Shown: positions 3,507 through 50,106, counted from the stretch's first letter. The stretch is 64,000 nucleotides of DNA from Pseudomonadota bacterium (GCA_034189235.1 JAXHVJ010000003.1:7828-71827), one strand, 5' to 3'. Notes: generated from the sequence alone by a model not told the origin. Translations and numbers: made by a program.

Positions 3507-5453
3507 ATGTTAACGATTACTGAACTCAGTTTACAACGGGGTGGTGTCTGGTTGCTAGAATCCGTGAATCTCACGGTTCAGCCGGGCCAGAGAGTTGCCA
3601 TCGTAGGTGCCAATGGTGCCGGTAAATCCAGCCTTTTCCAGCTCTTTTTGGGTCAGTTGGCGCCGGAGCAGGGCAGTGTTTCCCTGCCCGGGGGCTGCCG
3701 CATCGCCCACATGGCCCAGGAAGTGGCAGCGTCAGAACGCAGCGCGCGGGATTTTGTGCTCGATGGCGACCGGGAACTGAGGCGGATGGAGTCCGAACTG
3801 GCGAAGGCCGAAGCGGCCGGCGACGATCATGCCGCAGCCAGGATCCACGGCGAGCTGGATGTGCATGAGGCCTGGTCAGCGCCACGCCGGGCCGAGTCGC
3901 TTCTCCGTGGCCTGGGATTTGCCGATGGCGATGCCGAACGACCGGTTTCGGCCTTCTCCGGTGGCTGGCGGATTCGCCTGAACCTTGCCCGGGCGCTGAT
4001 GCGGCCCTCGGACCTGTTGTTGCTGGACGAGCCCACCAACCACCTGGATCTGGATGCCTGCCTGTGGCTGGAGAACTGGCTGCGGCGCTATCCCGGGACA
4101 CTGCTGTTCATTTCCCACGACCGGGACTTCATGGATCGGGTGGCCTCTCACGTGGTGCACTTTGATCAGCATAAGCTGGAGCTATACACCGGCAACTACT
4201 CGGCCTTCGAGCGCCAGCGTGGCGAGCGTCTGTCCCAGCAACAGGCCAATTATGAGCGCCAGCAGGCCCGGGTTGCCGAGATCCAGCGCTTTATCGACCG
4301 GTTCAGGGCCCAGGCCACCAAGGCCCGGCAAGCCCAGAGCCGGGTCAAGGCCCTGGAGCGGATGGAGCGCATTGCCCCGGCCCACATCGACTCTCCGTTC
4401 AGCTTCGAATTCCCGGTGGCGGAAAAGGTCTCCAACCCCTTGCTGTCCATTCGCAACGGGCAGGCCGGCTATGGTGAAAGCGTAATCCTGGACAATATCA
4501 ATCTGACCCTGCTGCCGGGCAGCCGCATCGGTCTGCTGGGCCCCAACGGTGCCGGCAAGTCCACCCTGATGGATACCCTCCGGGGCGAGCGCACAATGCT
4601 GGCCGGTGAGCGAACCTGTGGCGAGCATCTGGCGATCGGCTACTTCGCCCAGCACCAGCTCGAGTCCCTGGATCTGGATGCCAGCCCGTTTCTGCATCTG
4701 CAACGCCTGGCGCCGAAGGCGCCGGAGCAGAGCATCCGCAATTTCCTGGGCGGTTTCGATTTCCATGGCGACGAGGCGCTGAGCCCGATCCACTCGTTCT
4801 CCGGTGGCGAAAAGGCCCGGGTGGCTCTGGCGGTGATCGCCTGGCAAAGACCCAACCTGTTGCTGCTCGATGAGCCCACCAACCACCTTGACCTGGAAAT
4901 GCGGCAGTCGCTGACCATGGCCCTGCAGAATTTCGAGGGTGCCATTGTGGTGGTTTCCCACGACCGACACCTGCTGCGTAATACCGTCGACAATTTCTGG
5001 CTGGTCAATGACGGCCGGGTCTCCGGGTACGACGGCGATCTGGAGGATTACGAACGCTGGCTGGCTGACCGTCGCAAGGAACGGGACGAGGGTGAGGCCC
5101 CCCGGCGGGAGGCAGCGGGGGCAACCACGGCCCGTGCTGCCAATGGCGTGGGCGAGAGTGCCGACGACCGCAAGGCGCGCAAGCGCATGGAAGCGGAGAT
5201 TCGCAAGAAGCTCAGCCCCTACCGGAAACAGCAGGCGAGTCTCGAGAAAGAGATGGAGCAACTGCAGCAGACGCAGGTGCAACTGGAACAAGACCTGTCG
5301 GATCCGGGCCTGTACGAGGAAGCGGGAAAGGCCAGGTTGAATGAATTGCTCGCCCGCCAGGCCGACACCAGCCGGCGCCTTGAGGAAGTCGAGGCGCAGT
5401 GGCTGGACATCAGCGAGACTGTGGAAACCCTGGAAGAAGAGCTTACCGGTTAG
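3507..5453 (+). CDS. ABC-F family ATPase (YheS-like), two ABC domains plus C-terminal coiled coil
   Basis: Two Walker A motifs (GANGAGKSS, GPNGAGKST), two LSGG signatures (FSGGWRIR, FSGGEKAR), two LLLLDEPTNHLD Walker B motifs. No TM domain. Confidence 0.9.
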   Translation: MLTITELSLQRGGVWLLESVNLTVQPGQRVAIVGANGAGKSSLFQLFLGQLAPEQGSVSLPGGCRIAHMAQEVAASERSARDFVLDGDRELRRMESELAKAEAAGDDHAAARIHGELDVHEAWSAPRRAESLLRGLGFADGDAERPVSAFSGGWRIRLNLARALMRPSDLLLLDEPTNHLDLDACLWLENWLRRYPGTLLFISHDRDFMDRVASHVVHFDQHKLELYTGNYSAFERQRGERLSQQQANYERQQARVAEIQRFIDRFRAQATKARQAQSRVKALERMERIAPAHIDSPFSFEFPVAEKVSNPLLSIRNGQAGYGESVILDNINLTLLPGSRIGLLGPNGAGKSTLMDTLRGERTMLAGERTCGEHLAIGYFAQHQLESLDLDASPFLHLQRLAPKAPEQSIRNFLGGFDFHGDEALSPIHSFSGGEKARVALAVIAWQRPNLLLLDEPTNHLDLEMRQSLTMALQNFEGAIVVVSHDRHLLRNTVDNFWLVNDGRVSGYDGDLEDYERWLADRRKERDEGEAPRREAAGATTARAANGVGESADDRKARKRMEAEIRKKLSPYRKQQASLEKEMEQLQQTQVQLEQDLSDPGLYEEAGKARLNELLARQADTSRRLEEVEAQWLDISETVETLEEELTG

Positions 5454-11951: not shown

Positions 11952-12074
11952 CCACTGCCGACCAGACACTGTGCGCGCACTTTACTTGATTCCCCACCTC
12001 GTGTCGGCACTGCACCGGCAGTCCAGGCGACGAGTCACTCCGTACCTATAGGCCGATACAGAACGGAGCACACG

Positions 12075-13562
12075 ATGAAATACAACGACCTGCGTGACTT
12101 CATCAACCAGCTGGAGAAGCTGGGTGAGCTGAAACGGATCAGCGTGGAAGTCGATCCCCGCCTGGAGATGACCGAGATCTGTGACCGCACCCTGCGGGCA
12201 GGTGGGCCGGCGTTGTTGTTCGAGAATCCGAAAGGGTATGACATGCCGGTGCTGGCCAATCTGTTCGGGACTCCGAAGCGGGTGGCGCTGGGAATGGGGC
12301 AGGATGATGTCACGGCGCTGCGGGAGATTGGCAAGTTGCTGGCTTTCCTGAAGGAGCCGGATCCGCCCAAGGGCTTCAGGGATGCCATCGAGAAGCTGCC
12401 TGTCTTCAAGCAGGTGATGCGGATGAGCCCGAAGGTGCTCCGTTCGGCGCCCTGTCAGGAGGTGGTGATCGGGAAGGATCAGGTGGATCTTTACCAGATC
12501 CCGGTTCAGCACTGCTGGCCGGGCGATGCCGGTCCGCTGGTGACCTGGCCGCTGGTGATTACCCGTGGGCCGCACAAGGAGCGGCAGAATCTGGGGATTT
12601 ACCGGCAGCAGGTGATCGGCCGTAATCGGCTGATTATGCGCTGGCTCAGCCATCGGGGTGGTGCGCTGGATTTCCGGGAGTTCCAGAAGGCCAGTCCGGG
12701 TAAGCCCTATCCGGTGGCGGTGGCGCTCGGTGCGGACCCGGCCACGATTCTCGGGGCGGTGACGCCGGTGCCGGATACCCTGTCCGAGTATGCCTTTGCC
12801 GGCCTGCTCAGAGGGTCACGGACGGAGCTTGTGACGGCCGCGTTGAGTGACTTGCAGGTGCCGGCCAGTGCCGAGATCGTGCTGGAGGGGTTTATCTATC
12901 CGGACGAGATGGCGCCGGAGGGGCCGTTTGGTGACCATACCGGTTATTACAATGAGGTGGACCGGTTCCCGGTGTTTACCGTGGAGCGGATCACCCACCG
13001 CCGGAACCCGATCTATCACAGCACCTACACCGGTCGCCCGCCCGATGAGCCCGCCATCCTGGGCGTGGCGCTGAACGAGGTGTTTATTCCGATCCTGAAG
13101 AAGCAGTTCCCGGAGATTGTGGACTTCTACCTGCCGCCGGAAGGCTGTTCCTACCGGCTTGCCGTAGTCACCATGAAGAAGCAGTACCCCGGCCATGCCA
13201 AACGGGTCATGATGGGGGTATGGTCGTTTTTGCGGCAGTTCATGTACACCAAGTTCATTATTGTCACTGATGACGATGTGAATGCCCGCAACTGGGAAGA
13301 TGTGATCTGGGCAGTCACCACCCGGATGGACCCGGCGCGGGATACCACGATGGTGGAGAATACGCCGATCGACTACCTGGATTTCGCCTCGCCGGTGTCG
13401 GGTCTTGGCTCAAAGATGGGGATGGATGCCACCAACAAGTGGCCCGGTGAAACCGACCGGGAGTGGGGCGTGCCCATTGCCATGACCGACGAAGTGAAAC
13501 AGAGAGTCGATGACATCTGGGATAGCCTGGGGATTGAAATTCCGGGCTCCTGCCCTGATTGA
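12075..13562 (+). CDS. ubiD: 4-hydroxy-3-polyprenylbenzoate decarboxylase
   Basis: Corrected start [22 protein letters not shown]. Full-length UbiD-like sequence. The track start at 11904 is an over-extension. Confidence 0.95.
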
Positions 13563-13575
13563 GAAGGATAGGCAT

Positions 13576-14568
13576 TTGCATCGGATAGTGCTGTGGCCCT
13601 CAGGATTGCGTTATCCGGTGGATCCCGGTGCCGATCTGCTCGGTGCCGCAGCCCGGTCAGGTATTGCCGTGCCGGCCGCCTGTCGCAACGGGGTATGTGA
13701 GATCTGTGAGGCGCGGTTGCTGTCCGGGCCGGCCCTGAATACCCGTAATCAACGTGAAATTTCGATTGGCGAGCGGTTGATGATGTGTCGAACCCACGCG
13801 CTCGCTGACCTGGAACTGGAGATAACCGCCGTTATGGCAGCAGGAAACAATCAGCCCCGCAAGGTGCAGGCAAAGGTGGTGGATGTCCGGTCCATCAGCC
13901 ACGACGTTTACCGGGTGGAGTTGGCGATTCACCGCCGCCGGGAGCTGTCTTTTCATGCCGGGCAATACCTGTCGGTGAATCTGCCGGATGCGGACCCCTG
14001 TTATTTTTCCATTGCCAGCAGTCCGTCGGCGGAGCTGATTGAGCTGCACATCCAGGCCAGCCCCGACTGGGTATCCGCGCAGAATGTGGTTGATGCACTG
14101 AAATCGGGCCAGGATGTTACCCTGGAGCTGCCCCATGGCAAGGCCTGCCTCGCCGCAGTGCCGGAGAGACCGCTGCTGCTGGTGGCCGCCGGCACCGGAT
14201 TCGCCCAGATGAAGAGTCTGGTGGACTACCTGCAGGAGGCCGGTTACCGGTATCCGGTCAAGCTTTATTGGGGGGTGCGAAAGCGCGAGGATATGTACCT
14301 GCGCTCCCTGGCCCAGCAGTGGCATGAAGAGTCGGAGCGCTTTACCTTTGTGCCGGTGGTGGGTGACGATGAGGACAACGACTGGAGCGGTCACCACGAG
14401 CAACTGGTGCGTGCCGTGCTGGCTTCGGGCATGGACTGGCAGAACGTGGAAGTCCATGCCAGCGGGTCACCCGCTATGGTGTATACCCTGATGGATGCGC
14501 TGGTTGAGGCCGGACTGCCGCAGCAGGCGTTCTTTTCCGATGTGCTTGAATACGCCCCCAGGGGCTAG
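13576..14568 (+). CDS. 2Fe-2S ferredoxin / FAD-NAD(P) oxidoreductase (Fre- or CDP-6-deoxy-3,4-glucoseen-reductase-like)
   Basis: Cys cluster CRNGVCEICEARL...MMC, then a flavin reductase domain (RVELA...AGQYL, LLVAAGTGFAQMKS). Proposed TTG start at 13576 after GAAGGA. The track ATG at 13510 would overlap ubiD by 53 nt. Same neighbour of ubiD as in Pseudomonas. Confidence 0.75.
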   Translation: MHRIVLWPSGLRYPVDPGADLLGAAARSGIAVPAACRNGVCEICEARLLSGPALNTRNQREISIGERLMMCRTHALADLELEITAVMAAGNNQPRKVQAKVVDVRSISHDVYRVELAIHRRRELSFHAGQYLSVNLPDADPCYFSIASSPSAELIELHIQASPDWVSAQNVVDALKSGQDVTLELPHGKACLAAVPERPLLLVAAGTGFAQMKSLVDYLQEAGYRYPVKLYWGVRKREDMYLRSLAQQWHEESERFTFVPVVGDDEDNDWSGHHEQLVRAVLASGMDWQNVEVHASGSPAMVYTLMDALVEAGLPQQAFFSDVLEYAPRG

Positions 14569-14580
14569 AAACCATCCACG

Positions 14581-15669
14581 TCACAAACCACTGGCAGCCA
14601 CTCGCTTCCTATACCGGGGCTGATAGGTCCAGCTCTTTTGCATGATGTCGGGCCGCCCCGGTGTGGTGAGGCGCAGAACTTCCAGGCCCATTTCCTTGTT
14701 TTTCTGCTTCCAGGTTTCCTTGTCCATATCCCGCCAGTAGCGGGGTGGGCGCCGGGTCTGCCGGTCGTGTTCGGCGGTCACCGGGTCATTGGGCCGGTGT
14801 TCCTCCCACAGGGGGATATCCGGCAGTGGGCGACTGGTGTCCATGAACTTCTGGAGCATGTCCCAGAGGGCATAACATTCCTCCGGGCTGGTCTTGCCGA
14901 TGAGGTTGCCGACGGGAATGACAATGGGATGGTAGCGGTTGACCAGGTAAAGGGTGTGGACGGTGCCCCCGGGGTAGATCACCTCGTTGGTAAGGTAGGC
15001 ATCAAACTCGTAGAAAGGGGCGACCTCCTCTTCCGGCTTGCCGGTCTTGCCCCAGGAGCCTTTCCGGTCGTAGTGGTAGACGGTCACCAGGCCGGTACGG
15101 CGGTTGAATTCCCACTTGGGGCCTTTGTCGGGTTTTATAAGCCAGTTGGGGAAGAGTTTGAATAGTATCCTTGGTATCAGGTTACAGGCTAGTAGTGGTC
15201 CCATGAATATGGCCAGCACAGGAAGAAAGCCAATTAATGTCTTCCCTAATGACTCATCTGAGAAGCTGAGGGAGAAATGACCTGCTAGCCCTAGCAGCAG
15301 TGGGAAAATCATGAAGATCATTATGAATGGGTGGCCAAATCCACTGAGGAATACAAGTATTCGTGTGCGCAATGCTGCCGTGGCATGCCGATAGTACTCG
15401 TGATCAATTTTCTGGTAGGACTCGATATCTCCAAAGGGTTTCAGATTTTTCTCGCGCCGTCTCAGAGGCTCAGGGCGATGCCGGCGCCGGATAATCTGTG
15501 GGGCAACGTCCCTGGTGGCTCCCCAGGGTAGTTTTCTGTCTACCTTTCTGTTGAACCACGGCACCGCAGCATTAGCACCCGGGGAAGGGCGCTTTTGTTG
15601 CGGAAGCTGTTCTGAGCGGTAGGCGTGGCGTCCGTAATAGGACTGCCCGGTCTTTTCATCCGACTGCAT
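14581..15669 (-). CDS. Hypothetical inner-membrane protein (candidate immunity protein of the upstream membrane-toxin-like ORF)
   Basis: ATG overlaps the upstream stop (TGATG). Basic N-terminal region, two long hydrophobic segments (ILVFLSGFGHPFIMIFMIFPLLLGLAGHF; LIGFLPVLAIFMGPLLACNLIPRILF), then a ~190 aa soluble domain starting KWEFNRRTGLVTVYHY. I recognise no family with certainty. Confidence 0.6.
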   Translation of the reverse strand: MQSDEKTGQSYYGRHAYRSEQLPQQKRPSPGANAAVPWFNRKVDRKLPWGATRDVAPQIIRRRHRPEPLRRREKNLKPFGDIESYQKIDHEYYRHATAALRTRILVFLSGFGHPFIMIFMIFPLLLGLAGHFSLSFSDESLGKTLIGFLPVLAIFMGPLLACNLIPRILFKLFPNWLIKPDKGPKWEFNRRTGLVTVYHYDRKGSWGKTGKPEEEVAPFYEFDAYLTNEVIYPGGTVHTLYLVNRYHPIVIPVGNLIGKTSPEECYALWDMLQKFMDTSRPLPDIPLWEEHRPNDPVTAEHDRQTRRPPRYWRDMDKETWKQKNKEMGLEVLRLTTPGRPDIMQKSWTYQPRYRKRVAASGL

Positions 15670-17276
15670 CAGGTGGTCCTTGGGGTGTCGAATCCGTTTA
15701 TCCAGTAAAGCTGTTTATCATCGTCAAAGTCAGCTTCAGTATGGCTGTCCTCCTCGGGATTGTAGCGCGTTGTATCTTTGGGTGGGGGTGCCGGAAACGC
15801 TACTTCCTGTCCCTGCAGGGTCGCCCGGAACTGGGCTTTCGCCTGCCAGTGGTAACTCACGTCGTACCGACCCGTTGTCACACCCAACCGTTTGGCCGGT
15901 TCGGTATGGTTTCGTGGGGTTTTAACCAGTATTTCATAGCCGGTGGGTGTGGCCCCTTCGTAAAGTATGTGGGTTTCCATTTCTGTATCCGGCACGGGAT
16001 TATGGGATTTTGTGACGGTGGAGCGGCCATTTCGTTTCTGCTTCTTCTGCATCAGCCTCAGTTCGCTGGACAGCGTCAGCCCATGGGCCCCCACCAGTCC
16101 GGCCAGATTGCTTTCCAATCGGACAATGTCCGTCGCCTCGGTCAGCGGATCGTCAATGTGGCCCTGCTTCTTGCGCCACTCCCTGAGTGTTTCCGGCACG
16201 GGAATTTTGGTCAGGCGCATGTGGGCCAACAGGTTGGCCAGACGGTAATAGGCTTCTGTCGCGTTCTCATTACCCTTCAGATGGGGCAGGCCGTCTTCCT
16301 CGCCGAAGGGGCCATTTCTCAGCCAGTTCTCAATGGGCTCGTCTTCCAGCGTAGCCACCAGAGCAACACCGCCCAGTATAAGGCCAAGGCCCACCCAGCC
16401 CAGCGGCCCCATACCCAGCAAGGTCACTTGCGCCGGTACCAGAGCCGCCAGAGTAGTGACAACACCCCCGGTAGTAATCAATCCGTGCCCGGTCGCGGCA
16501 GGGTCGCCCATATCCAGGGCATAGAGGGTATCGGAGAGGCTGATGCCTGCGAAGGCAAGGCCGCCGATGCCACCAAGGAACATTTTGACAGTGAGGGCTT
16601 CGGCACGGAATAGCCTGGCAATCAGTTTTGCGGGTTCGCCTTTGAATTTGTAGGAAAGAAAAGTTGAGACTTTTTGCCTTACCAGTTCATCGGCAAAGCG
16701 TTCTGCCAGAAGAATGGTGGCTACTCCAGTACCATAAGTGGAACTCAGGCCTCCGGAGATAGATCTTGCCGCACTGCGCTCTCGTGTGATTTGGTCGATA
16801 TTTCCAAGAGTACTCCAAACATTCACCCCCTCAATAACCAACACCACAACCGGCAAAGCAGGGGTATTCAGCACCTTGTACAACCGGCTGTTCTCCGCAC
16901 TGTCCAACTGCAGCTTGTGTTGCTCAGTGGCGCTTTCGGTGACACGGATATCCGCATTCACATCCCGTATCCGGCTCCCGGTGGCCTTGAGTTCTTCGGT
17001 CACCCGGTGGTAACGGCTCTGGGCGGCTACCAGTCTGTTCTGCGCCTCCATTTCATTACTGTTGGCCTGGTCTACAGCGCGGCGGGCCAGTATCAGCGCG
17101 TTCTCAGCGCGGGTGAGGGCGCGGATGGATTCGGTGGCGGGTTTGTCCTGATCCAGTACCCAGACCGGAATCCGGCCTTCCTGCTGGCTGGCGGGGGTGA
17201 AGCGGGCACCGTCTGCCGTCAGGTCTTCCAGCCCCGGTATGTATTTGCCCTGGGCAATGGCATCGCTCAGGGTCAT
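15669..17276 (-). CDS. Coiled-coil plus glycine-rich multi-helix membrane domain protein (C-terminal half of a VasX-like pore-forming toxin?)
   Basis: Residues ~45-135 are heptad-like (ENALILARRAVDQANSNEMEAQNRLVAAQSRYHRVTEEL...). Residues ~137-330 hold four or five hydrophobic Gly/Ala/Thr-rich helices (MFLGGIGGLAFAGISL; GLITTGGVVTTLAALVPAQVTLLGMGPLGWVGLGLILGGVALVATL). A ~200 aa soluble tail follows. No clear Shine-Dalgarno sequence before the ATG. Confidence 0.6.
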   Translation of the reverse strand: MTLSDAIAQGKYIPGLEDLTADGARFTPASQQEGRIPVWVLDQDKPATESIRALTRAENALILARRAVDQANSNEMEAQNRLVAAQSRYHRVTEELKATGSRIRDVNADIRVTESATEQHKLQLDSAENSRLYKVLNTPALPVVVLVIEGVNVWSTLGNIDQITRERSAARSISGGLSSTYGTGVATILLAERFADELVRQKVSTFLSYKFKGEPAKLIARLFRAEALTVKMFLGGIGGLAFAGISLSDTLYALDMGDPAATGHGLITTGGVVTTLAALVPAQVTLLGMGPLGWVGLGLILGGVALVATLEDEPIENWLRNGPFGEEDGLPHLKGNENATEAYYRLANLLAHMRLTKIPVPETLREWRKKQGHIDDPLTEATDIVRLESNLAGLVGAHGLTLSSELRLMQKKQKRNGRSTVTKSHNPVPDTEMETHILYEGATPTGYEILVKTPRNHTEPAKRLGVTTGRYDVSYHWQAKAQFRATLQGQEVAFPAPPPKDTTRYNPEEDSHTEADFDDDKQLYWINGFDTPRTT

Positions 17277-18936
17277 TTGCCGTAGCCCGGGCAGCAGGTT
17301 CGGCCTCTATAGGATTGCTCAGCCGTGCCATACGCTGGGCCATGAAGCGCTGGTGGATGGCCTGCCGGGCCCGGCGTCGGGTCAGTTCACGCTGCTGCTC
17401 GTTAAGCTTCCGTTTTTCACGGTCGTTGTTTTCCAGCGCGGCCTGGGCCGTGCGGATGGATTCGTGGATCTCGCGGTGGGCTGCATCCAGTGCCTTCACG
17501 CCGCTGTGCATTCCGGCCAGCATAAGCGTGTTGAGGGCGCCACTTTGCAGGTCGTCGGCCAGCCGGAGGCCTTCGATGGTGAGCAGTTCGTCCAGGTCTT
17601 CCGGCAGATCCCGGTTTTCCAGCTCTGCCAGCGCGGTACCCCGGAACACCCCGTCCCCGTTGTTGGGTTCCGGGGCTTCCGGTGGCTGGTAGGGAACCTG
17701 CTGTTGTTCAGGGTCGGCCTGGGGCCAGAGCATCCGGGCCAGGGAGACTTCCCCCCGGGACTGGCTGGCGGCGACGCTCTCCTCGCACAAGTCCCTCAGC
17801 CAGATTTTGCCATCAGTGTCAGGGCTGGGCAGGCCATGCTCCGGGTGCAGCGGATCGGCCTTGAGAGGTGGCTCCAGGGTGTCGGCGATGAACCGCCCGG
17901 TGCAGCGGAAGGCCCCCGCGTAGTCGAAACCGCTGGCACTGAACAGGTCGCCCAGTGTTTGCTGGTAGGGTTGTCGTTGCAGGCAGAGCAACAGTTCATC
18001 CTGGGCCGGCTCCCTTGGCCGCTGGGGTTCCACCTGGTCCATGCGGAAAACGTGGGCGTAGCGTGACTCTGCTCGTGCAAAACCTATGCCGGGCTGGCTG
18101 CAGGGCATCAGCGTTTTCAGTTGGGTGCAACGGTAATGCAGCAGGGTAAAATCAGCTTCCAGCCGGTTGATACGGGCAGCGGGCAAGGGGGATTCCGCGA
18201 AGGCAGCTTCCATGGACTGATTCTTGCCACCCAGCCGGACGGGTACCCAGATATCCTCCAGGGGCTTGCCAGCCGGATGGCGCTGGTCTGCGGTGATTTT
18301 GCCGTCTTCATCCCGGTAATCCGAGAGCCGTGTGTCCCGGAAGACCGGCCGGTCGTTTTCCCAGGTGATCTTCAGTTCCCGCCACAGGCGGCCTTCCCGG
18401 AACAGATACAGGTACCCGGGCCGTGCCAGCACGGGCCAGGTGAGGTGTTTTCCGTCAACCGCCATGCCCCGCAGCCAGGCCATGGGCACGATGGGGGCCA
18501 GTAAATTTTCGTGACCCTTTTCTGTTTGCCATTGCGCCTGCTCCGCTTGTTCCAGCAGGGACAATCGGATCGGCGGGCCTTCTTCGGAGTCTATCTCCAG
18601 TATCATCCGGCTCGGAGGCTGATTTTTCCAGGGCCAGACGTGAAGAGTGGATCTGCCTTTGGCAAAAGAGGCACGATGGCCTTCGAGCTTGCCGTCTGCT
18701 TCTCTTGGACGGATACCCGGAAATTCTTCTCCCTGGTGTTGATAGACAACCGGTTTCTGCCCGTCAGGGTGGTTCTTGCCGTATACCTCGACAAGAAAAT
18801 CACAGTTTCCACAGGGAGGATCCTGGCTGAGGATGCTGTTCGTGATACCGCTTCTCACTGGACCCCTCCGGTATGCTTTTCGAGGTGGCAGGGCAGTGTT
18901 TCGCGGCGAAAAAGGGTTGGCAATACCATGGGACAA
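17104..18936 (-). CDS. Large soluble protein, VasX-N-terminal-like (possibly the N-terminal half of a frame-disrupted ~1,090 aa toxin)
   Basis: TTG start at 18936; an alternative GTG at 18858 follows GGAGGGG. CxxC (PPCGNC). The block LLAPIVPMAWL...LARPGYLYLFREGRLWRELKI...AFAESPLPAARINRLEAD resembles the VasX_N/BTH_I2691-type effector pattern from memory. The last 57 codons (17104-17276) overlap the next ORF and read as an Arg/Pro/Gly/His-rich out-of-frame-looking tail. Confidence 0.55.
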   Translation of the reverse strand: MSHGIANPFSPRNTALPPRKAYRRGPVRSGITNSILSQDPPCGNCDFLVEVYGKNHPDGQKPVVYQHQGEEFPGIRPREADGKLEGHRASFAKGRSTLHVWPWKNQPPSRMILEIDSEEGPPIRLSLLEQAEQAQWQTEKGHENLLAPIVPMAWLRGMAVDGKHLTWPVLARPGYLYLFREGRLWRELKITWENDRPVFRDTRLSDYRDEDGKITADQRHPAGKPLEDIWVPVRLGGKNQSMEAAFAESPLPAARINRLEADFTLLHYRCTQLKTLMPCSQPGIGFARAESRYAHVFRMDQVEPQRPREPAQDELLLCLQRQPYQQTLGDLFSASGFDYAGAFRCTGRFIADTLEPPLKADPLHPEHGLPSPDTDGKIWLRDLCEESVAASQSRGEVSLARMLWPQADPEQQQVPYQPPEAPEPNNGDGVFRGTALAELENRDLPEDLDELLTIEGLRLADDLQSGALNTLMLAGMHSGVKALDAAHREIHESIRTAQAALENNDREKRKLNEQQRELTRRRARQAIHQRFMAQRMARLSNPIEAEPAARATANDPERCHCPGQIHTGAGRPDGRRCPLHPRQPAGRPDSGLGTGSGQTRHRIHPRPHPR

Positions 18937-19084
18937 CGCTCCGTGTTGTTTGCTTATTACGTCCAGGTAATCTCGGGCTGTACCAAATAATCCGGGCGCT
19001 TCCTGCTACACAGAGAAATCAGTACGGCCAGAGGCAGCTGTTACGTTACCATTTAGAATTGGACTCTCGCCAGTGGGTGCTCGA

Positions 19085-20326
19085 CTAGGCCTTCGGCATG
19101 GGCAGCTCCGGCAGCCCGTTATCCTGGGCCAGCTCCTGCATCATCAGTTTGATGCTCAGCTCTTGCTCGCCCATGTGGGCATTCAGCCGGCTCAGTTCTG
19201 CCAGTGCCTCGCGGCTGCGGCGCAGGCGCAGGCTGGTCTCGAAATACTCCCTGGCCTTGCCCCACAACTCGTTGCGCAGGCTCAGTCGACCCAGGGCCAG
19301 CAGGAGTTCGGCGTTGTTGGGGCGGTCCTTGAGCCATTGTTCGGCCAGCAGTAGTTGCTCATCCGGTTTATGCCCCTTGATCCGGCCGTAAAGATTGATC
19401 AGCTCATCACTCCAGTGGTTCCGCAGTACCTTGCGCAGCAGGGTTTCGGCCTGGGCCTCGTCGCCCAGTCTGGCCAGCAGGCGGGCGTAATCCCGAATGG
19501 TGTATTCATCCCGGCGCAGGAATCCGGGCAGCTCGTCCCACAGGCGGGTCAGGGGTTCCAGGGACGCTTCCGGGTCTGCCTTGCGGGCCCGCTCACATTC
19601 CTCAGCCGCCTGTTCCAGCAGGTTGTGCCAGACTTCCCGCTCCAGCTCGTGGAACTCCTCTTCCGGCAGAACATCCCGCTTACGCAGTTCTGGCAGCAGC
19701 CTGGACAGTTCGCGCCAGTCCTCGAGTCTCAGGTAGGTGTTCTTCAGCAGTTTGAGAACGAAGGGATGATGCGGTGACTCCTTGCGCAACCGTATCAGGG
19801 TGGCAAGTGCCTGTTCCAGTCGGTTGCCCGCCAGTTGCAGCTGGGCCTGGGTGATGCCCACGGCAAGGTCCGAGCCCGGCGTGCTCTCGAAGGCCCGGCG
19901 CAGCAGGTCATCCACGGCCTCATGGTCGCCGGACTCAAAAGCCGCCTGGGCTGCCGCCAGGTAGTTGATCAGGGGCGTATCTGCCTTGTCGGCGGCGGAG
20001 GTCAGCAGCTTCCGGGCCCTGGGCCAGTTGCCTTCCGCCAACGCCAGCAGTCCCTGGGTGGTGCGGCGTCGGGCGCGGCGTTCGTTGCCCCGTGCAATCC
20101 AGCCAGCGATCATGCCGGTGCCCTGGCGGAAACGGCGGATCAGGTTGATGGCCAGCACTGTAAGCACTACCAGCGCGACAAACAGCGCCAGGCCGACCCA
20201 GAAATTGGTTTCCACCAGGTAATGGCCCAGGCTCACCCGGATGTAGCCCAGGTCGTATTGCAGGCCCAGCGCCAGGCCAGTACCGATGAGCAGTGCTATC
20301 AGGATAATCAGCAAGAGGCGGATCAT
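19085..20326 (-). CDS. hemY: Heme biosynthesis-associated TPR membrane protein HemY
   Basis: Two N-terminal TM segments and a TPR-rich body. Position after hemX, with a 4-nt overlap. Confidence 0.85.
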   Translation of the reverse strand: MIRLLLIILIALLIGTGLALGLQYDLGYIRVSLGHYLVETNFWVGLALFVALVVLTVLAINLIRRFRQGTGMIAGWIARGNERRARRRTTQGLLALAEGNWPRARKLLTSAADKADTPLINYLAAAQAAFESGDHEAVDDLLRRAFESTPGSDLAVGITQAQLQLAGNRLEQALATLIRLRKESPHHPFVLKLLKNTYLRLEDWRELSRLLPELRKRDVLPEEEFHELEREVWHNLLEQAAEECERARKADPEASLEPLTRLWDELPGFLRRDEYTIRDYARLLARLGDEAQAETLLRKVLRNHWSDELINLYGRIKGHKPDEQLLLAEQWLKDRPNNAELLLALGRLSLRNELWGKAREYFETSLRLRRSREALAELSRLNAHMGEQELSIKLMMQELAQDNGLPELPMPKA

Positions 20327-21444
20327 GATTCCGTGCCTCCGGCGCCGGCACTGGTCTCCTCGCCGTCGCCGCCATTGCCATCGAGCCGGCCGGCCAGGCG
20401 TTGCTTGAGAAGGTCGAGGGATTTACTGATGTCCGGAAGTTCCGGATCAACGTTACGGTTGGCCAGCTCCGCGAGGGTATCCGACAGCGCTTTCACCCGG
20501 GGATTTTCCGGGTTGTACCAGTCAGTGATCGCCCCCCGGGCCTTGCCGAGGGCGCGCTCATACAGCGCCTGATTGCCCCGCAAGACGGCCATTTCGGCTT
20601 CTTCCAGCATCAGTTGGAGGTTGAGCCGGGCGTAAGCACTCTGGTCCGGTGACAGCAGGGGTTTGACCGGCTCGTCCAGCCGGCGTACCACCACAACCCG
20701 GCCGAGGGTGTCGGTGAACTGGCTCCAGGCCTGGGCGAGCAGACCCGGGCCCCCTTCGGTGGCGTCCAGGGTGGCGCCGCCATCACCGGCCACGAATCCG
20801 GGGGCCGACTCGTGGATCAGGGCCTGATCGGTGAGCTGGTTGACGCTGTCGATACCGGCTTCCAGGGTAAGGTAAAGGCCGGTGCGGTCGACGTTTTCAA
20901 TGCCTTTGAGGGCGAGCAGTTCCCGGGCCAGCTGCTGGCGCACCGGGTAGACGCCGATGTCGTCGGACTCGGCCAGGACCTCGTCGGCGGCCCGCAGGGC
21001 GGAGATCGCGCCGCCAATGTCCTTCTCGATCTGCAGGCGCTGGTTGGCGATCCGGAGCAGGTATTCCGCCTCGGCCAGCAACCAGTCGGTGCGGGTGCGG
21101 TTACCGGCTTCGAGCAACTCCCGGGCATTGTGGTCAATCTGGCGTTGCCAGGTGGCAATCAGCTCGCGCTGGGCCGCCAGTTTTTCCTCCAGGGACTGGA
21201 GTCTCCGGGCCTGTTGGCTGCCCCGGTCGCCATACAGGTCTTCCAGCTGGCGGGTATCCTGCTGCAGGCTCTCGAGAGTCTGTAACGTGGCCTGGTGCGC
21301 CTGCCATTGCTGCCAGCTCCACAGGGCCAGGGCAATGGCGACGACCAGTGCAACAGTCGCGAGTAACCACAAGGGCCAGAGCTTCTGGCGGCTGGGTTGT
21401 TCCCGGGGAACGGGAACGGGCAGTTGATCGGTTGTTTCAGTCAC
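20323..21444 (-). CDS. hemX: HemX (uroporphyrinogen-III C-methyltransferase-like membrane protein)
   Basis: Single TM segment followed by a long coiled-coil region. Canonical hemC-hemD-hemX-hemY order. Confidence 0.8.
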   Translation of the reverse strand: MTETTDQLPVPVPREQPSRQKLWPLWLLATVALVVAIALALWSWQQWQAHQATLQTLESLQQDTRQLEDLYGDRGSQQARRLQSLEEKLAAQRELIATWQRQIDHNARELLEAGNRTRTDWLLAEAEYLLRIANQRLQIEKDIGGAISALRAADEVLAESDDIGVYPVRQQLARELLALKGIENVDRTGLYLTLEAGIDSVNQLTDQALIHESAPGFVAGDGGATLDATEGGPGLLAQAWSQFTDTLGRVVVVRRLDEPVKPLLSPDQSAYARLNLQLMLEEAEMAVLRGNQALYERALGKARGAITDWYNPENPRVKALSDTLAELANRNVDPELPDISKSLDLLKQRLAGRLDGNGGDGEETSAGAGGTES

Positions 21445-21452
21445 GGGCGTCC

Positions 21453-22265
21453 TTACGTTTTATTTGCGGCGCCACCGTTTCTGCCATAAAGCTGTGCTGA
21501 AACAGTGGCCACGATGTCATTATCGGCAAGACTTCCTGGTACACACGGTTTCTCGAATCCCGCCTCCCGGGCCATCCGGGCCACACGTTCGGCGGGAACG
21601 ATCAGTAATCTATCGTATAGATTATGGCCGCTCTTCGCACATAGTGCGATGAGATTGTTCAGGGTTTCCCCGGACAGTGCCACGATAACCTCCGGCGCGA
21701 ACCGGCCGAGGACAAGGTCCACTTGCTCCGGGGAATGGTCCGGGCAGAACCGGCGATACAGGGGCAGCATGGTGACCCTTGCGCCTCTCGATTCCAGGGT
21801 CTGGCGGATCAGTTCACGGCCGTCCTCGCCCCGGGCAATCAATACCCGTTCTCCCTCCGGCCGGGCCAGGGAAGGGAGTTCCAGCAGGGCTTCGCTGGTC
21901 CAGCCGCTCGCTGGCCGGCGCACCGACAGGCCGTGACCGGCGAGAACCGCAGCGGTTCCGGCTCCGACCGCATACCAGCGGATCCCCGTGGGAATCCGGG
22001 GCCACCAGGTGTCGATTTCCTCCAGCAGCCGGCGGGCGGCGTAGGGGCTGACGACAATGACGTGGGTAAACTGGTCCAGGTTCAGGATCGTGGTGCGGTT
22101 TTCCGGGGTTTCCGGCAGCGGTTCCCGGTCGATCAGCGGCAGGACCCGGGTTTCGGCTCCGGCGGATTCGAAGGCTCGGGCAAGGCGGCCGGCTTCCGGT
22201 TCCGGCCGGCAGATCAGGACCCGCCGGCCGGACAGGCAAGGCCGATCAGCGTGGGGTATGACCAT
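21453..22265 (-). CDS. hemD: Uroporphyrinogen-III synthase
   Basis: HemD-like sequence ([11 protein letters not shown]...[10 protein letters not shown]). The track start overlaps hemC by 20 nt, so the true start may lie slightly downstream. Confidence 0.85.
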
Positions 22266-23196
22266 AGATTTCCGCCAGTACCTTGTCTGCCCCCATGGCC
22301 AGCAGGTCTTCGGCGAGTTCCCGGCCCAGGCGTTCGCCCTCGCCCCGGGGTGCTCTGCCTTCCACCCGGAAAATCTGCTCGCCGTTGACCGCGCCCACCA
22401 GTCCGCGCAGCCAGAGGGTGTCTTCGTCTTCCAGCAGGGCGTAGGCGGCGATGGGTACCTGGCAGCCGCCTTCGAGGCGACGGTTCAGTGCCCGCTCGGC
22501 CCTGACCCGGTCCCACGTGTCGGTGTGGTTCAGGGGTGCGATCAGTTCCAGCAGTTCGGTGTCATCCACCCGGCATTCGATACCAAGGGCACCCTGGCCG
22601 ACGGCCGGTAAGGAGACGGTGTCCGGCAGGCAGTAACGGATACGGTTATGGAAACCCAGGCGCTTGAGGCCGGAGCTGGCCAGCACGATGGCGTCGTATT
22701 CCTCGGCATCCAGCTTCGCCAGCCGGGTATTCACATTCCCGCGCAGGACCTTGATCTGCAGGTCGGGGCGGTAGGCGCGCAGCTGGGCTTCCCGGCGCAG
22801 GCTGGCGGTACCGACCACGGCGCTGTCGGGGAGAGCATCCACGGTCTCGTACTTGTTGCTGACGAAGGCATCAGTCGGATCCTCGCGTTCGCAGATGGCC
22901 ACAAGCCCCAGGCCCTCCGGAAACTCCATGGGCACGTCTTTCATGGAGTGCACGGCCAGGTCGGCACGGCCGTCGAGCATGGCTTCCTCGAGTTCCTTCA
23001 CGAACAGTCCCTTGCCACCGATTTTTGCCAGCGGCACGTCCAGAATCCTGTCGCCCCGGGTCTTGATCTTGACCAGTTCAACGCTGACGTTGTCGTGCAG
23101 GCACTCCAGTTCGGTCTTGATGTGTTTCGCCTGCCAGAGCGCAAGGGCGCTGCTGCGGGTTGCGATGCGAAGGGTACGTTTGGACATGGCACTCAC
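22246..23196 (-). CDS. hemC: Hydroxymethylbilane synthase (porphobilinogen deaminase)
   Basis: [15 protein letters not shown]...IKTRGD...[11 protein letters not shown]... is canonical HemC. Confidence 0.95.
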
Positions 23197-37276: not shown

Positions 37277-39472
37277 TTGAAAACTCTGGTTATCCTGCTT
37301 CTGTGCCTGCTGACGCCGGCATCCCTGCTGGCGCAAGAGCGTGAGCGTGCCCGGGTCGGTCTGGTGCTCAGCGGTGGCGGGGCCAAGGGCATGGCCCATG
37401 TGGGGGTGCTTCGGGTGCTGGAGGAAATGAATATTCCGGTGGATGTGGTGGTGGGCACCAGCGCCGGCGCGGCCGTTGGTGCCCTTTACGCCTCCGGCAT
37501 GCCGGTTGCCCGGATTGAGGAACGCTTCATCGAAATGGACTGGCTGTCCAGTTTCCGTGACGACCCGGGCCGGGCCTACAAACCGATCCGGCGCAAACAG
37601 GATGATTGGCGGTTTCCGGTTCTGCCCGGTATCGGCGTCCGTGCCGATGGTCTGCATGTCGGAGGCGGGATTGTCGCCGGTCAGAACCTGGGGTTCATCC
37701 TCAACGAACTGACCCGGAATGCCGCCCTGGTGGAGGACTTTGACCGGCTGGCGATTCCGTTCCGGGCGGTGGCGACCGACCTGGCCACTGGCGAGCAGGT
37801 GGTGATCGGCCGCGGCAACCTGGCCGAGGCGGTCCGCGCAAGCATGAGTATTCCGGGTGTCTACGCCCCGGTGGAGCTGGACGACCGCCTGCTGGTGGAC
37901 GGGGGTGTCGCCAACAACCTGCCGGTGAGTGTGGCCAGGGAGTTGGGCGCGGAGGTGATCATCGCGGTGGATATCACCGACCCGCTCACGGAGACCGATG
38001 ATCTGAGGGATGCCTTTTCCGTGGTGGGCCAGCTTACCACCCTGTTGACCCGCCGCAATACGGACCAGCAGCTGGACCTGCTTGGCGAGCAGGACATCCT
38101 GATCCGTCCGGATCTGCAGGGTTACACCTCGGCCGATTTCTACCAGGCTCCGCTGCTGTTCGAGCTGGGCGCGACCGCCGCCCGCAACCACGCCAGCGAG
38201 CTGAGACCTTTGCAGGTTTCACGCACCGAGTGGACGGCCTACAAGGCCCGGATGTCCACCCGGGCCTTCAGTGCCGACCCGATTGCCCGCATCGAGATCG
38301 AGAATACCCGACGGCTGGCCCGGGATTTCCTGCGGGAGCGGATCCGCCAGCCCGTCGGTGAGCCCCTCGATGTTCCTGCCCTGGAAGAGGATCTCAAACG
38401 CATCTACGGTCTTGGCTACTACGAAACCGTTTCCTACTCGCTGTCCCCCTCGCCGGATGGCACGGTGCTGGTGATCCGGCCCCGGGAAAAGACCTGGGGG
38501 CCCAATTACCTGTCCTTCGGCCTCGGCTACGAGGACAATTTCGATGGCGAAACCCGTTTCAATATCGCCTCTGCATTGCGTATGACCGAACTCAACCGGC
38601 TTGGCGGTGAGTGGTATACCGGCTTGCAGCTGGGTACCGAACCCTGGGTCAGGACCCAGTGGTATCAGCCCCTGGACTACGGCTACGACCGCTTCCTGGT
38701 GCTCGGTGGTGAGTATTCCCGGGACAACCTTGCCGTTTATGACAAGGCTGGCCAAAAGATCGCCGAGGTGGATGTCACCTTTCGTACCGCGGATCTGGCG
38801 CTGGGAATGGAGCTGGGCAGTGATGCCGAAGCCCGGCTGATCTACACCCGTGGCTATGCCACGGTGGATGAAAAAGTGGGGGAGCCGGTCGCCCCGGATG
38901 ACGCCATCCACCAGGGCAACGTAACGCTGCGACTGGTCCATGATTCCCTGAATGATGCATTCTTTCCGACCGCCGGGGCTTTTGCCGGTGTGAAAGCCCG
39001 GTTCGAGCGGGAAGATCTTGGCTCGGACCGGCATTTTGACTCGGTAACCACCCTTCTTCTGGATACCGGAAGCTGGCAGGGCCTGACCCTGACGGGACTG
39101 GTGTTTGCCAAGGATGTTACCCGGGGCGAGGCCGGGGTCGAGAATCACGTCCGGTTGGGTGGCTTCCGGCGGCTGTCGGCGTTCGCCCCCGGTGAGATCA
39201 CAGGTGAGAGCGCGGCCATGGCGGCCGCTTACGCCAGCCAGCGTTTTGGTGGGCCGCTGGTGCCCTGGTTTGCGGGGTTCGGGTTCGAGACGGGCAACGC
39301 CTGGGATTCCCTGAGTGATGCCAGCTGGGACCGCTCAGTCCGATCCTGGAGCCTGTTTGCCGGGGTGAACACCTTCCTGGGGCCGGTTCAGCTGGCGGGC
39401 GCGTACAACAACGAGGATAACTGGAGCGCGTACCTCAACATCGGCTTCTCTTTCACCCAGCTGTTCTACTGA
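37277..39472 (+). CDS. Patatin-like phospholipase fused to a POTRA/Omp85 beta-barrel (PlpD-like, type Vd secretion)
   Basis: TTG start and signal peptide. Patatin motifs SGGGAKG, GTSAG and DGG. C-terminal barrel-like region ending in the aromatic residues ...FSFTQLFY. Confidence 0.85.
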   Translation: MKTLVILLLCLLTPASLLAQERERARVGLVLSGGGAKGMAHVGVLRVLEEMNIPVDVVVGTSAGAAVGALYASGMPVARIEERFIEMDWLSSFRDDPGRAYKPIRRKQDDWRFPVLPGIGVRADGLHVGGGIVAGQNLGFILNELTRNAALVEDFDRLAIPFRAVATDLATGEQVVIGRGNLAEAVRASMSIPGVYAPVELDDRLLVDGGVANNLPVSVARELGAEVIIAVDITDPLTETDDLRDAFSVVGQLTTLLTRRNTDQQLDLLGEQDILIRPDLQGYTSADFYQAPLLFELGATAARNHASELRPLQVSRTEWTAYKARMSTRAFSADPIARIEIENTRRLARDFLRERIRQPVGEPLDVPALEEDLKRIYGLGYYETVSYSLSPSPDGTVLVIRPREKTWGPNYLSFGLGYEDNFDGETRFNIASALRMTELNRLGGEWYTGLQLGTEPWVRTQWYQPLDYGYDRFLVLGGEYSRDNLAVYDKAGQKIAEVDVTFRTADLALGMELGSDAEARLIYTRGYATVDEKVGEPVAPDDAIHQGNVTLRLVHDSLNDAFFPTAGAFAGVKARFEREDLGSDRHFDSVTTLLLDTGSWQGLTLTGLVFAKDVTRGEAGVENHVRLGGFRRLSAFAPGEITGESAAMAAAYASQRFGGPLVPWFAGFGFETGNAWDSLSDASWDRSVRSWSLFAGVNTFLGPVQLAGAYNNEDNWSAYLNIGFSFTQLFY

Positions 39473-39486
39473 CGGCGCAGCTCATC

Positions 39487-40920
39487 CTAAAGCAGGGGTG
39501 CACTCAGGCGGATGGCCCGGCAAGCGAGTCGGAACAGGATTGAACGGTCCCGGTAGTCGCTCCCGGTCATCCGGCGGCAACTTTTCAGGTCCTCCTCCAG
39601 CATCTGTTCCACATCGGACACGAATTGTCGGCAGGTGTTGATGGCGGTGATCTCGAAGTTCAGGCGCATGGAACGGTTGTCCAGGTTGGCCGTACCCACC
39701 GCGGCATAGCGGTCGTCCACCAGCACCACCTTCTGGTGCATGAAGCCCGGCTGATAGCGATAGATGCCGATACCCGCCTGGCTGGCCTGCACCAGATAGG
39801 AATAGGCAGCCAGCTTGACCAGATGGTTGTCCGGAGTTTCCGGAATCAGGATGCGAACATCGATGCCCCGGAGCGCCGCAAGTTGCAGGGCATTCATGAT
39901 CTGGAAGTCCGGGACGAAGTAGGGTGAGGCAATCCAGATCCGGGACCGGGCATTGTTGATGCAGTTCAGGAAGAAGAGGGTGCACGTTTCCCAGGTGTCG
40001 GCCGGTCCGGTGGGAAGGATCAGCACCTCCTGGTCGCCCGGTGTGTGCTCGCCGGCGCTCCAGTCCAGGTTGGGCAGCCGGTCGCTGGCCCAGTTCCAGT
40101 CCTCCAGCCACGCCAGCTGGAGACCGCTCACCGCCGGGCCCTCGATCCGGCAGTGGGTGTCCCGCAGGGGATCCTGATCCATGGCAGTACCCAGGTATTC
40201 ATCACCCAGATTGATGCCGCCGACAAAGCCGACCCTGCCGTCGCATACCAGCAGCTTCCGGTGATTGCGGAAGTTGATCTGGAACCGTCGGCGGCGGATG
40301 TTGCCATCGCCGAACGAGGCGACCCGGGCGCCGGCCCGGGACAGTTCCCGCAGATAACGGCGGGGCAGGAAGGCGCTGCCGATGTCATCGTACAGGAACC
40401 ACACCTCCACGCCCTGGGCGAGTTTCCGTTCCAGGATCGACTTGATGCGCTGGCCGACCCGGTCCGAGCGGACAATATAGAACTCCAGGAGGATGTAGCG
40501 TCGGGCATCCTCCATGGCTTCGAACAGAGCCTCGAAGGTGGCTTCACCGTCCCGCAGCAGGGTACAGCGGTTGCCATCGGTAAAGGGTTGGCGGCCAAGT
40601 TTGCACAACACCTGCAGCTCATCCGCGAAACGGTCGCTGCCGGTGGCCGGAATCGAGGTGGTCTGTTGTTCAAACCGGTTCAGCAGCGCGGTGAGGGATT
40701 CGTCCCCCATACGCCTGGCCCTCACGTAGCCACCGAACCGGTTCCGGCCGATCAGCAGAAACAGGGGCACGGTGACGTAGGGAATGCCGAGCAGGCCTAT
40801 GATCCAGGCTATGGCCCCCTGGGGTGTGCGGTAGGTCAGCAGGATACGGTAGATGCATGCCAGTGCGCCCAGGTAAAACAGGCCGACAGCAATCGCAATC
40901 AGGGATAAGCCCTCCGTCAT
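39487..40920 (-). CDS. clsA: Cardiolipin synthase
   Basis: Two N-terminal TM helices and two HKD motifs (NHRKLLVCDG..GGINLGDEY; MHQKVVLVDD..GTANLDNRS). Confidence 0.9.
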   Translation of the reverse strand: MTEGLSLIAIAVGLFYLGALACIYRILLTYRTPQGAIAWIIGLLGIPYVTVPLFLLIGRNRFGGYVRARRMGDESLTALLNRFEQQTTSIPATGSDRFADELQVLCKLGRQPFTDGNRCTLLRDGEATFEALFEAMEDARRYILLEFYIVRSDRVGQRIKSILERKLAQGVEVWFLYDDIGSAFLPRRYLRELSRAGARVASFGDGNIRRRRFQINFRNHRKLLVCDGRVGFVGGINLGDEYLGTAMDQDPLRDTHCRIEGPAVSGLQLAWLEDWNWASDRLPNLDWSAGEHTPGDQEVLILPTGPADTWETCTLFFLNCINNARSRIWIASPYFVPDFQIMNALQLAALRGIDVRILIPETPDNHLVKLAAYSYLVQASQAGIGIYRYQPGFMHQKVVLVDDRYAAVGTANLDNRSMRLNFEITAINTCRQFVSDVEQMLEEDLKSCRRMTGSDYRDRSILFRLACRAIRLSAPLL

Positions 40921-49835: not shown

Positions 49836-50106
49836 AACAACTCCTTGATTAATCCAATGCGCCGGAACCGGCATCCTTATATAAGCAAGCCTCGCCTGGA
49901 GGGTAAGGGAAGTTATGGACCACACACCGGATTCTGGCCCCACCCGTTTGGGGGAGGAATGCCCGCTTTTTGTGTAAAAATGTACAAGAAATGTAACGAT
50001 GGCCATGTAGGATGTAGAAAATTCCTCGAAAATCGGCGGCAGAAGCGTTTCAAGTAAGTGTGTTTGCTGCCAGGTTTACAAAGTATCCGTTAAAGAGGTC
50101 AGGCAG

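Follow-up and report, generated by a model that had tools for sequence, protein, structure and literature searches.

We analysed a cassette of three open reading frames (ORFs) in a 64,000-nucleotide (nt) stretch of DNA from a Pseudomonadota bacterium (GCA_034189235.1, JAXHVJ010000003.1:7828-71827), which we refer to as the window. The cassette is flanked on either side by hemY and a fre-like reductase gene of a Marinobacter strain, and we read it, with a probability of about 85%, as the decaying gene of a pore-forming toxin of a type VI secretion system (T6SS) followed by its retained immunity gene. An earlier note on this DNA, made from the sequence alone, had described three co-directional minus-strand ORFs between housekeeping genes, an ORF3 start codon overlapping the ORF2 stop and a 12-nt gap to the convergent reductase gene. 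All of these were recovered at the coordinates given here, the ATG of ORF3 sharing one base with the stop of ORF2 (TGATG), and the peptide blocks quoted in that note are also present, as is its CxxC motif in the form CGNC. The layout is:

14569-14580, no strand: 3′ junction of the island, 12 nt from the ORF3 stop to the convergent reductase stop
14581-15669, minus strand: ORF3, 362 amino acids (aa)
15669-17276, minus strand: ORF2 as listed, 535 aa, its start being an internal conserved Met
17104-18936, minus strand: ORF1 as listed, 610 aa
18859-19084, minus strand: 5′ flank of the island from the hemY stop to the effector start, in place of the REP-like palindrome of relatives

ORF1 and ORF2 together are colinear with single proteins of 1272-1348 aa, the intact orthologues being 1304-1309 aa long. 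Three relatives run continuously across the ORF1/ORF2 junction: P0001, the closest database relative (85% identity), which reads '...ARLSNPMEALRQSMPNLLPGLRQMALSDAIAQGKY...' at this point, a 1309-aa protein of Marinobacter sp. LQ44, and a 1304-aa protein encoded on the metagenome contig L084. In the window, the reading frame of ORF2 is shifted by +1 with respect to that of ORF1, the two ORFs share 173 nt, and the last ~58 residues of ORF1 as listed are out-of-frame read-through. The true start of ORF1 is a GTG at 18858, preceded 6 nt upstream by GGAGG. Since this codon aligns with residue 1 of the orthologues, the upstream spacer measures 226 nt; the 148 nt to the hemY stop reported previously are correct when counted from the longest-ORF start (18936, with the hemY stop at 19085), but not from the real one. 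By these alignments ORF1 and ORF2 are a single gene split by a 17-nt deletion, so the cassette of three ORFs described in the earlier note holds two genes, one of them broken. The two halves of the effector, which in the window genome is most likely a pseudogene, are:

17300-18858, minus strand: N-terminal fragment of the effector pseudogene, containing the MIX domain and some of the helical scaffold
15669-17303, minus strand: C-terminal fragment of the effector pseudogene, running from a coiled coil through a bundle of hydrophobic helices to a beta-rich tail

Compared with the intact L084 effector, the N-terminal fragment has 93% aa identity over residues 1-287 and 76% over residues 471-760, and the C-terminal fragment 87% over residues 766-1303.

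DNA alignment of the window against L084 and a further contig carrying the cassette, L007, resolved three lesions in the effector gene:

17999-18011, minus strand: junction left by the in-frame loss of 576 nt (192 codons), which encode residues ~288-479 in the intact protein
17350-17375, minus strand: junction left by the in-frame loss of 144-147 nt (48-49 codons) between short repeats (RRRA..QA) of the coiled-coil region
17300-17304, minus strand: the 17-nt frameshifting deletion, or 'frame break', between two GCCG direct repeats

At the largest of these, window position 17999 pairs with L084 position 6937 and 18011 with 7501, with 9-13 nt of overlap, and the lost segment carries four nearly invariant residues of the family (D372, D389, A424 and R467). 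The history of the lesions can be read from the 120-kilobase (kb) contig L087, which is 99.6% identical to window positions 12000-23000 and differs from it by only two indels. L087 carries both in-frame deletions like the window. At the site of the third lesion it reads GAGGCCG-TGCGGCAATCCATGCCG-AACCTG where the window reads GAGGCCGAACCTG, and because it keeps these 17 nt its ORF1-ORF2 junction is continuous. It is instead frameshifted within the MIX domain by an extra C at window position ~18243, giving products of 235 and 853 aa, and contig L088 shows the same pattern (17 nt kept, +1 C). Since the window and L087 lineages share both in-frame deletions, these losses (192 and ~48 codons) likely came first and the frameshifts arose later and independently, which in the window lineage would mean a 17-nt deletion in an already shortened gene beside an intact immunity gene.

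The effector is broken in other lineages of the family as well. In L007 one C has been lost from a C7 run near residue 522, and in a group of contigs designated L001-L006 the gene breaks near residue 715; this frameshift, seen on 14 contigs across several samples, leaves fragments of 724/738 and 603 aa. Programmed frameshifting was considered as an explanation for such breaks and rejected because they differ in site and nature (loss of 17 nt, gain of a C, loss of a C from a C7 run) and because intact orthologues exist. L001-L006 (for example, L001:7882-12891) represent a second cassette, ~56% identical and flanked by a luciferase-like monooxygenase gene on one side and a LysR gene on the other, that was found in the same metagenomes as the window's strain.

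The 17-nt gap might instead be an artefact of assembly or consensus calling, in which case the strain would encode a continuous effector of ~1066 aa, perhaps active and served by a T6SS elsewhere in the genome. The presence of the 17 nt in L087 and L088 is what this explanation would expect, as is a run of Ns exactly at the 17-nt site in contig L089, which indicates that assemblers struggle there; the low ratio of non-synonymous to synonymous substitution (dN/dS) discussed below would also fit. However, the loss of 17 nt between GCCG repeats is typical of slipped-strand deletion and not of read error, Ns are absent from the window, and the L089 N-runs also fit two real alleles co-occurring in the sample. 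Even without the frameshift, moreover, the 192-codon deletion of a conserved segment would remain, and we consider an artefact very improbable. In L089, the N-runs at 4404-4428 and 5294-5307 start exactly at the +1 C and 17-nt sites, and four other N-runs are present; this suggests that window-type and L087-type alleles co-occur in the source of this contig, JGI sample 3300003536.

The identity of the broken effector was sought in curated profiles, motifs and structure predictions, and the features that emerged are:

18466-18504, minus strand: MIX flanking motif IVPMAWLR, within the LLAPIVPMAWLRG block
18400-18429, minus strand: MIX central motif hRxGhhYhh, present as LARPGYLYLF (motif definition from PMC12909789)
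18181-18207, minus strand: MIX flanking motif AAFAESPLP
16332-16889, minus strand: ORF2 aa ~130-315, predicted to insert into the membrane, with the conserved motif DEPIENWLRNGPFG after it
15795-16229, minus strand: beta-rich C-terminal region, ORF2 aa ~350-494, from strands in the AlphaFold2 model, where alone the predicted local distance difference test (pLDDT) reaches 65-89

ORF2 matches the NCBIfam model NF041559 (BTH_I2691_fam) with an E-value of 2.5e-15 and 56.1 bits over profile positions 599-855 of 858. The in-silico fusion of ORF1 and ORF2 scores 53 bits and intact relatives score 51-57 bits (E ~1e-14 to 1e-15), compared with 160 bits for a true family member on contig L013, from Stutzerimonas stutzeri. 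ORF1 carries the central motif of the MIX domain, whose three motifs have been defined as shhPhR, hRxGhhYhh and hhF/YSxxxWS/T (PMC12909789). ORF1 has recognisable forms of the flanking motifs, and the family alignment shows them clearly, its consensus reading xRxGYLYxF and AFSEVQWSA. A Kyte-Doolittle scan found four to five hydrophobic helices in ORF2 (aa ~132-313), in line with the earlier note. When a 48-sequence profile of the family was aligned by hhalign to a bona fide S. stutzeri BTH_I2691_fam/VasX_N protein, the probability was 92.8% (E = 3.9e-7) and the alignment spanned the hydrophobic helices together with a DxPxExWLKNGPFG motif. The AlphaFold2 model of ORF2 has a helical N-terminal half and a beta-rich tail of moderate confidence, and the best match of this model in the Protein Data Bank (PDB) by Foldseek is Ptx2 (9qpv; E = 3.4e-3, probability 0.96), followed by Ig-like domains. 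Our profile search of 1.84 billion cluster representatives returned 163 relatives at E <= 1e-3, themselves representatives at 50% identity, most of them 1150-1550 aa long and matching at their C-terminal end. Together these data place the effector in a sister subfamily, divergent and uncurated, beside the BTH_I2691/VasX family, as its 56 bits fall short of the curated cut-off of 150 that a formal member would reach. The family assignment of the earlier note (VasX/BTH_I2691) holds up: ORF2 matches NF041559, and ORF1 has the central motif of MIX and weakly matches VasX_N. Comparisons of profiles and structure of the kind proposed in that note (NF041559, hhalign, Foldseek) showed similarity to membrane-disrupting effectors, with the NF041559 score below its curated cut-off.

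The link to a T6SS comes from relatives and not from the window. In Pseudomonas citronellolis (L011), the gene order is hcp, vgrG, DUF4123, a 1272-aa effector homologue and three tandem ORF3 homologues, the effector having 36% and 30% identity to ORF1 and 29% to ORF2 (E from 1e-34 to 4e-42). Similarly, Marinobacter sp. JH2 (L086) has the order tssM, vgrG, DUF4123, a 1348-aa effector homologue and an ORF3 homologue. Given this gene order in relatives, together with the profile match and the MIX motif, the pore-forming effector and immunity module proposed in the earlier note is supported. For the undescribed route of delivery or function that it had offered as an alternative we found no support.

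Several results weigh against our reading. A tblastn search of the whole 64-kb window with Hcp, VgrG and DUF4123 gave no hits (all E > 0.1). Neither ORF2 nor the fusion nor any of the intact relatives reaches the 150-bit cut-off of NF041559, and in Pfam VasX_N, which has a cut-off of 27 bits, ORF1 scores 12.7 bits and the intact relatives ~18 (up to 18.5). The ORF2 model, built from 9 sequences, is poor overall (pLDDT 45.7), and because of this the match to Ptx2, with its low TM-score of 0.17, lends weak support. PDB sequence searches with the intact LQ44 effector and with the 48-sequence family profile found no match. Finally, window-branch substitutions in the effector have a dN/dS of ~0.14 (77 synonymous, 33 non-synonymous), equal to that of the intact L084 branch. 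Regarding the profile scores, E-values of 1e-14 to 1e-15 on NF041559 still indicate homology despite the sub-cut-off scores.

The first of these results raises the question of whether the cassette has anything to do with a T6SS, or is some other membrane-protein operon or a toxin exported by an undescribed route. The absence of T6SS genes that the earlier note had reported for the 64 kb was borne out for Hcp, VgrG and DUF4123, and the ten large ORFs between 26 and 64 kb carry ordinary Pfam domains, none of them of a T6SS. The intact copies in LQ44 and L084 also lack an adjacent vgrG, and every match to a curated model is sub-threshold. However, homologues of the effector and of ORF3 directly follow VgrG-DUF4123 in two genera, the MIX motif is present, and the BTH_I2691 profile and hhalign both give matches. 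None of the three proteins was matched by PADLOC, so the cassette is no known anti-phage system, and well-documented cases exist of orphan MIX effectors that depend on a distant T6SS cluster (PMC13133200). We therefore regard an origin outside the T6SS as extremely improbable.

The low dN/dS is the main loose end, as it means either that the lesions are recent or that the fragments are still constrained. If the latter, the split gene might be functional: ORF2, translated from its internal Met, could be an active membrane toxin held in check by ORF3, as in an addiction or toxin-antitoxin system, or ORF1 and ORF2 could form a two-chain effector. Neither fragment has acquired extra stop codons, the overlap between the ORF3 start and the ORF2 stop would permit translational coupling, and the helical region of the related effector Tke5 is toxic by itself, even without a periplasmic signal (PMC12909789). 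Further, all four independent frameshifts in the family (4/4) fall upstream of the membrane-inserting region. A more speculative extension is that repeated breakage, at four sites in four lineages, frees a still-active C-terminal pore-former from T6SS delivery, yielding a self-stabilising addiction module with ORF3 or a membrane function independent of the T6SS. Yet four different break positions argue for random inactivation, and the chance of four hits all falling upstream of residue 900 of 1304 is ~23%. There is also no obvious Shine-Dalgarno motif before the ORF2 ATG, the 192 lost codons include the four nearly invariant residues, and a 99.6%-identical strain has the junction intact yet is broken elsewhere. 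We consider a functional split very unlikely and its extension to a released pore-former just as unlikely, and recent lesions are favoured over ongoing constraint. Returning to decay of the effector as the preferred reading, the gene has been pseudogenised by three deletions and the module is for this reason probably no working weapon.

The cassette is an insertion at hemY and forms a strain-specific island. We scanned HemY loci in one genome per GTDB species and obtained 67 loci, comprising 65 from Marinobacter or unnamed metagenome-assembled genomes, one from Tamilnaduibacter and one from Halospina, with the closest HemY proteins 96% identical to that of the window. ORF1, ORF2 and ORF3 are absent from the hemY locus in all 67 of these Marinobacter-clade species representatives, so that the comparison of the ubiD/hemY junction among related genomes suggested in the earlier note shows a cassette that is not universal (0/67 hemY loci). 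In ~59 of the 67, hemY and the reductase gene lie 11-291 nt apart. The spacer between them in relatives, equivalent to the hemY/reductase junction at 14569-19084 of the window, usually carries a palindrome like the repetitive extragenic palindromic (REP) elements, GGGGTCAGATGAAAGCTTTCATCTGACCCC, which the window lacks and in whose place the island stands. In related Marinobacter, GGGGTCAGATGAAAGCTTTCATCTGACCCC is present in one to three copies (L016:11225-11385, L017:8531-8762, L018:11183-11343 and L075:11183-11272), and this element is probably a bidirectional terminator.

At the same hemY site, the metagenomic relative L084 has the cassette with its 1304-aa effector intact and four or more immunity paralogues, and DNA homology between L084 and the window is unbroken from hemX/hemY into the effector. 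At L084:10001-14858, and also in L083 and L085, the immunity genes form a tandem array in which the last ~56 effector codons stand before each later unit, 83-98% identical. Cassettes of this type occur in other contexts too: L007 has one preceding suhB, and in LQ44 one follows an acyl-CoA dehydrogenase gene. We saw no mobility gene in the L001-L006, L007 or LQ44 contexts and no target-site duplications or inverted repeats at the ends of the island, and the different genomic contexts share no homology in their upstream regions. In composition, the cassette has slightly less GC than the surrounding DNA (58.4% versus 61.7%), with a GC content at third codon positions of 0.64-0.71 against 0.71-0.79 in neighbouring genes, and the 5′ flank at 18859-19084 has 53% GC against 62% for the whole window. 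A promoter and terminator scan of the cassette was uninformative, with counts at the level of shuffled sequence.

The second gene of the cassette, ORF3, is intact and most likely a retained immunity gene. Its parts are:

14581-15669, minus strand: ORF3, composed of an N-terminal cytoplasmic segment, a transmembrane (TM) hairpin and a conserved C-terminal alpha/beta domain
15151-15372, minus strand: TM hairpin of ORF3, aa ~100-173, from hydropathy and AlphaFold2

The two long TM segments noted earlier in ORF3 were evident in a Kyte-Doolittle scan (aa ~102-173), and AlphaFold2 gave a confident model (pLDDT 88.9, predicted TM-score 0.84) of a TM hairpin and an alpha/beta domain. We detected 370 relatives of ORF3 in Marinobacter, Pseudomonas, Stutzerimonas and Halopseudomonas, all annotated as hypothetical. 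ORF3 keeps all 31 invariant and all 35 nearly invariant columns of the family alignment, and an identical protein is encoded on 10 metagenome contigs. In every context examined, the ORF3 homologues come right after such an effector gene, often as tandem arrays of three to four or more paralogues. Pfam and NCBIfam scans of ORF3 gave no match, including none at E <= 1 to PF20455 (DUF6708), whose gathering threshold of 27 bits is not reached, and Pfam scans of 113 family members returned noise only, with a DUF6708 match in 2 of the 113 (best E 0.024). Foldseek with the confident ORF3 model found no fold match in the PDB (best E 0.29). At L013:8729-11047 in S. stutzeri, another, bona fide BTH_I2691/VasX_N effector is followed first by its own 318-aa DUF6708-like gene and then by an additional, apparently orphan ORF3 homologue, and both the homologue and the DUF6708-like protein have a TM hairpin followed by an FNRRT motif. 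An hhalign comparison of the ORF3 family with this DUF6708-like protein gave 22% probability. There are hints here of a very distant common origin of the ORF3 and DUF6708 families.

How ORF3 might recognise its toxin is suggested by the distribution of sequence identity. Relative to the L084 array, the C-terminal domain of ORF3 is 92-98% identical whereas the TM hairpin ranges from 40 to 92%, and the hairpin matches that of the second gene in the array (92%) and not that of the gene beside the intact effector (40%). On the effector side, the membrane-inserting segment is the most diverged part, with 79% identity compared to 91-92% in the flanking segments. For the related pair Tke5-Tki5, the interaction has been located at the membrane (PMC13133200). 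This identity pattern is as expected if specificity resides in contact between the TM domain of the toxin and the hairpin of the immunity protein within the membrane.

In its ancestral form, as in L084, the cassette would have encoded one cargo effector of ~1300 aa followed by one or more immunity genes. The N-terminal MIX domain would, as in relatives, be loaded onto VgrG via a DUF4123 adaptor, and the four to five hydrophobic helices within the long helical region would enter the inner membrane of the target from the periplasm and depolarise it, with the beta-rich C-terminal domain as the third part of the protein. ORF3 would be an inner-membrane immunity protein whose variable TM hairpin presumably binds the inserting helices of the toxin and blocks the pore. 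With the effector apparently disabled and ORF3 intact, what remains would serve, if it serves at all, as protection from neighbours that still fire the toxin.

Some further features of the window were recorded alongside the cassette. As listed, the fre-like reductase ORF shares its first 53 nt with the end of ubiD (13510-13562), and the gene call in the near-identical L087 has the same overlap, so the true start of the reductase may be further downstream. A 731-aa patatin-like phospholipase gene on the plus strand is convergent with a 477-aa gene on the minus strand that encodes a protein with two HKD motifs resembling phospholipase D (37277-40920); the latter is probably a cardiolipin synthase, and no T6SS context is evident for this pair. 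At 47805-50006 on the minus strand, a 733-aa ORF with no Pfam match at E <= 1e-5 lies amid ordinary housekeeping genes.

The module is ordinary in kind and leaves the current understanding of T6SS biology unchanged; only its decay is instructive. At one site there is a natural series in which the weapon is lost and the shield is kept, from an intact effector with its array, through in-frame deletions, to independent frameshifts in 99.6%-identical strains. Two families also gain a functional class from the analysis: an unannotated effector subfamily (163 representatives) and an unmodelled immunity family of at least 370 proteins. Neither reaches Pfam or NCBIfam thresholds, and the variable hairpin set against the near-identical cytoplasmic domain of the immunity paralogues points to the seat of specificity.

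Among known systems, the closest are the effectors of the BTH_I2691/VasX family, for which we used as examples Tke5 of Pseudomonas putida (PDB 9R8G), Ptx2 of P. aeruginosa (PDB 9qpv), VasX of Vibrio cholerae and Bte2 of B. fragilis. Tke5 and Ptx2 are reported to begin with a MIX domain, continue with a toxic helical region in which TM helices are buried, and end in a beta-rich, Ig-like part (PMC12909789), and in the Tke5/Tki5 pair membrane depolarisation or pore formation is neutralised by the downstream immunity protein (PMC13133200, PMC12909789). The cassette shares with this family a profile match that spans the membrane-inserting region and the DxPxExWLxxGxFG motif, the VgrG and DUF4123 loading genes of its relatives and a membrane immunity gene directly downstream. 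It differs in scoring only 51-57 bits against the 150-bit cut-off, with VasX_N sub-threshold, in intact members that are ~300 aa longer (1270-1350 versus 996-1086 aa), and in having no sequence-level match to any solved member; further, the window copy is broken and without an adjacent vgrG or adaptor gene. The immunity proteins compared were Tki5, TsiV2, Pti2 and DUF6708 proteins such as Tsi3a. Like these, ORF3 is a (predicted) inner-membrane protein of ~35-41 kDa whose gene directly follows that of the effector. It resembles the DUF6708 protein Tsi3a, which in Stenotrophomonas rhizophila has 12 tandem homologues (PMC13340143), in its tandem paralogue arrays, and the DUF6708-like L013 gene in its TM hairpin followed by an FNRRT-like motif. 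It differs in that ORF3 does not match Pfam DUF6708, its confident model has no PDB fold match, and its family has no curated model.

Orphan immunity genes and arrays left by effector displacement or decay have been described in V. cholerae (Kirchberger et al. 2017, PMC5361080). As there, the immunity gene has been kept and the effector lost, the units of the L084 array each bear the last ~56 effector codons, and modules move by recombination without visible mobility genes. In contrast to V. cholerae, the island lies between hemY and fre rather than at the 3′ end of a T6SS cluster, and small deletions are eroding the effector where it stands, with no new module taking its place.

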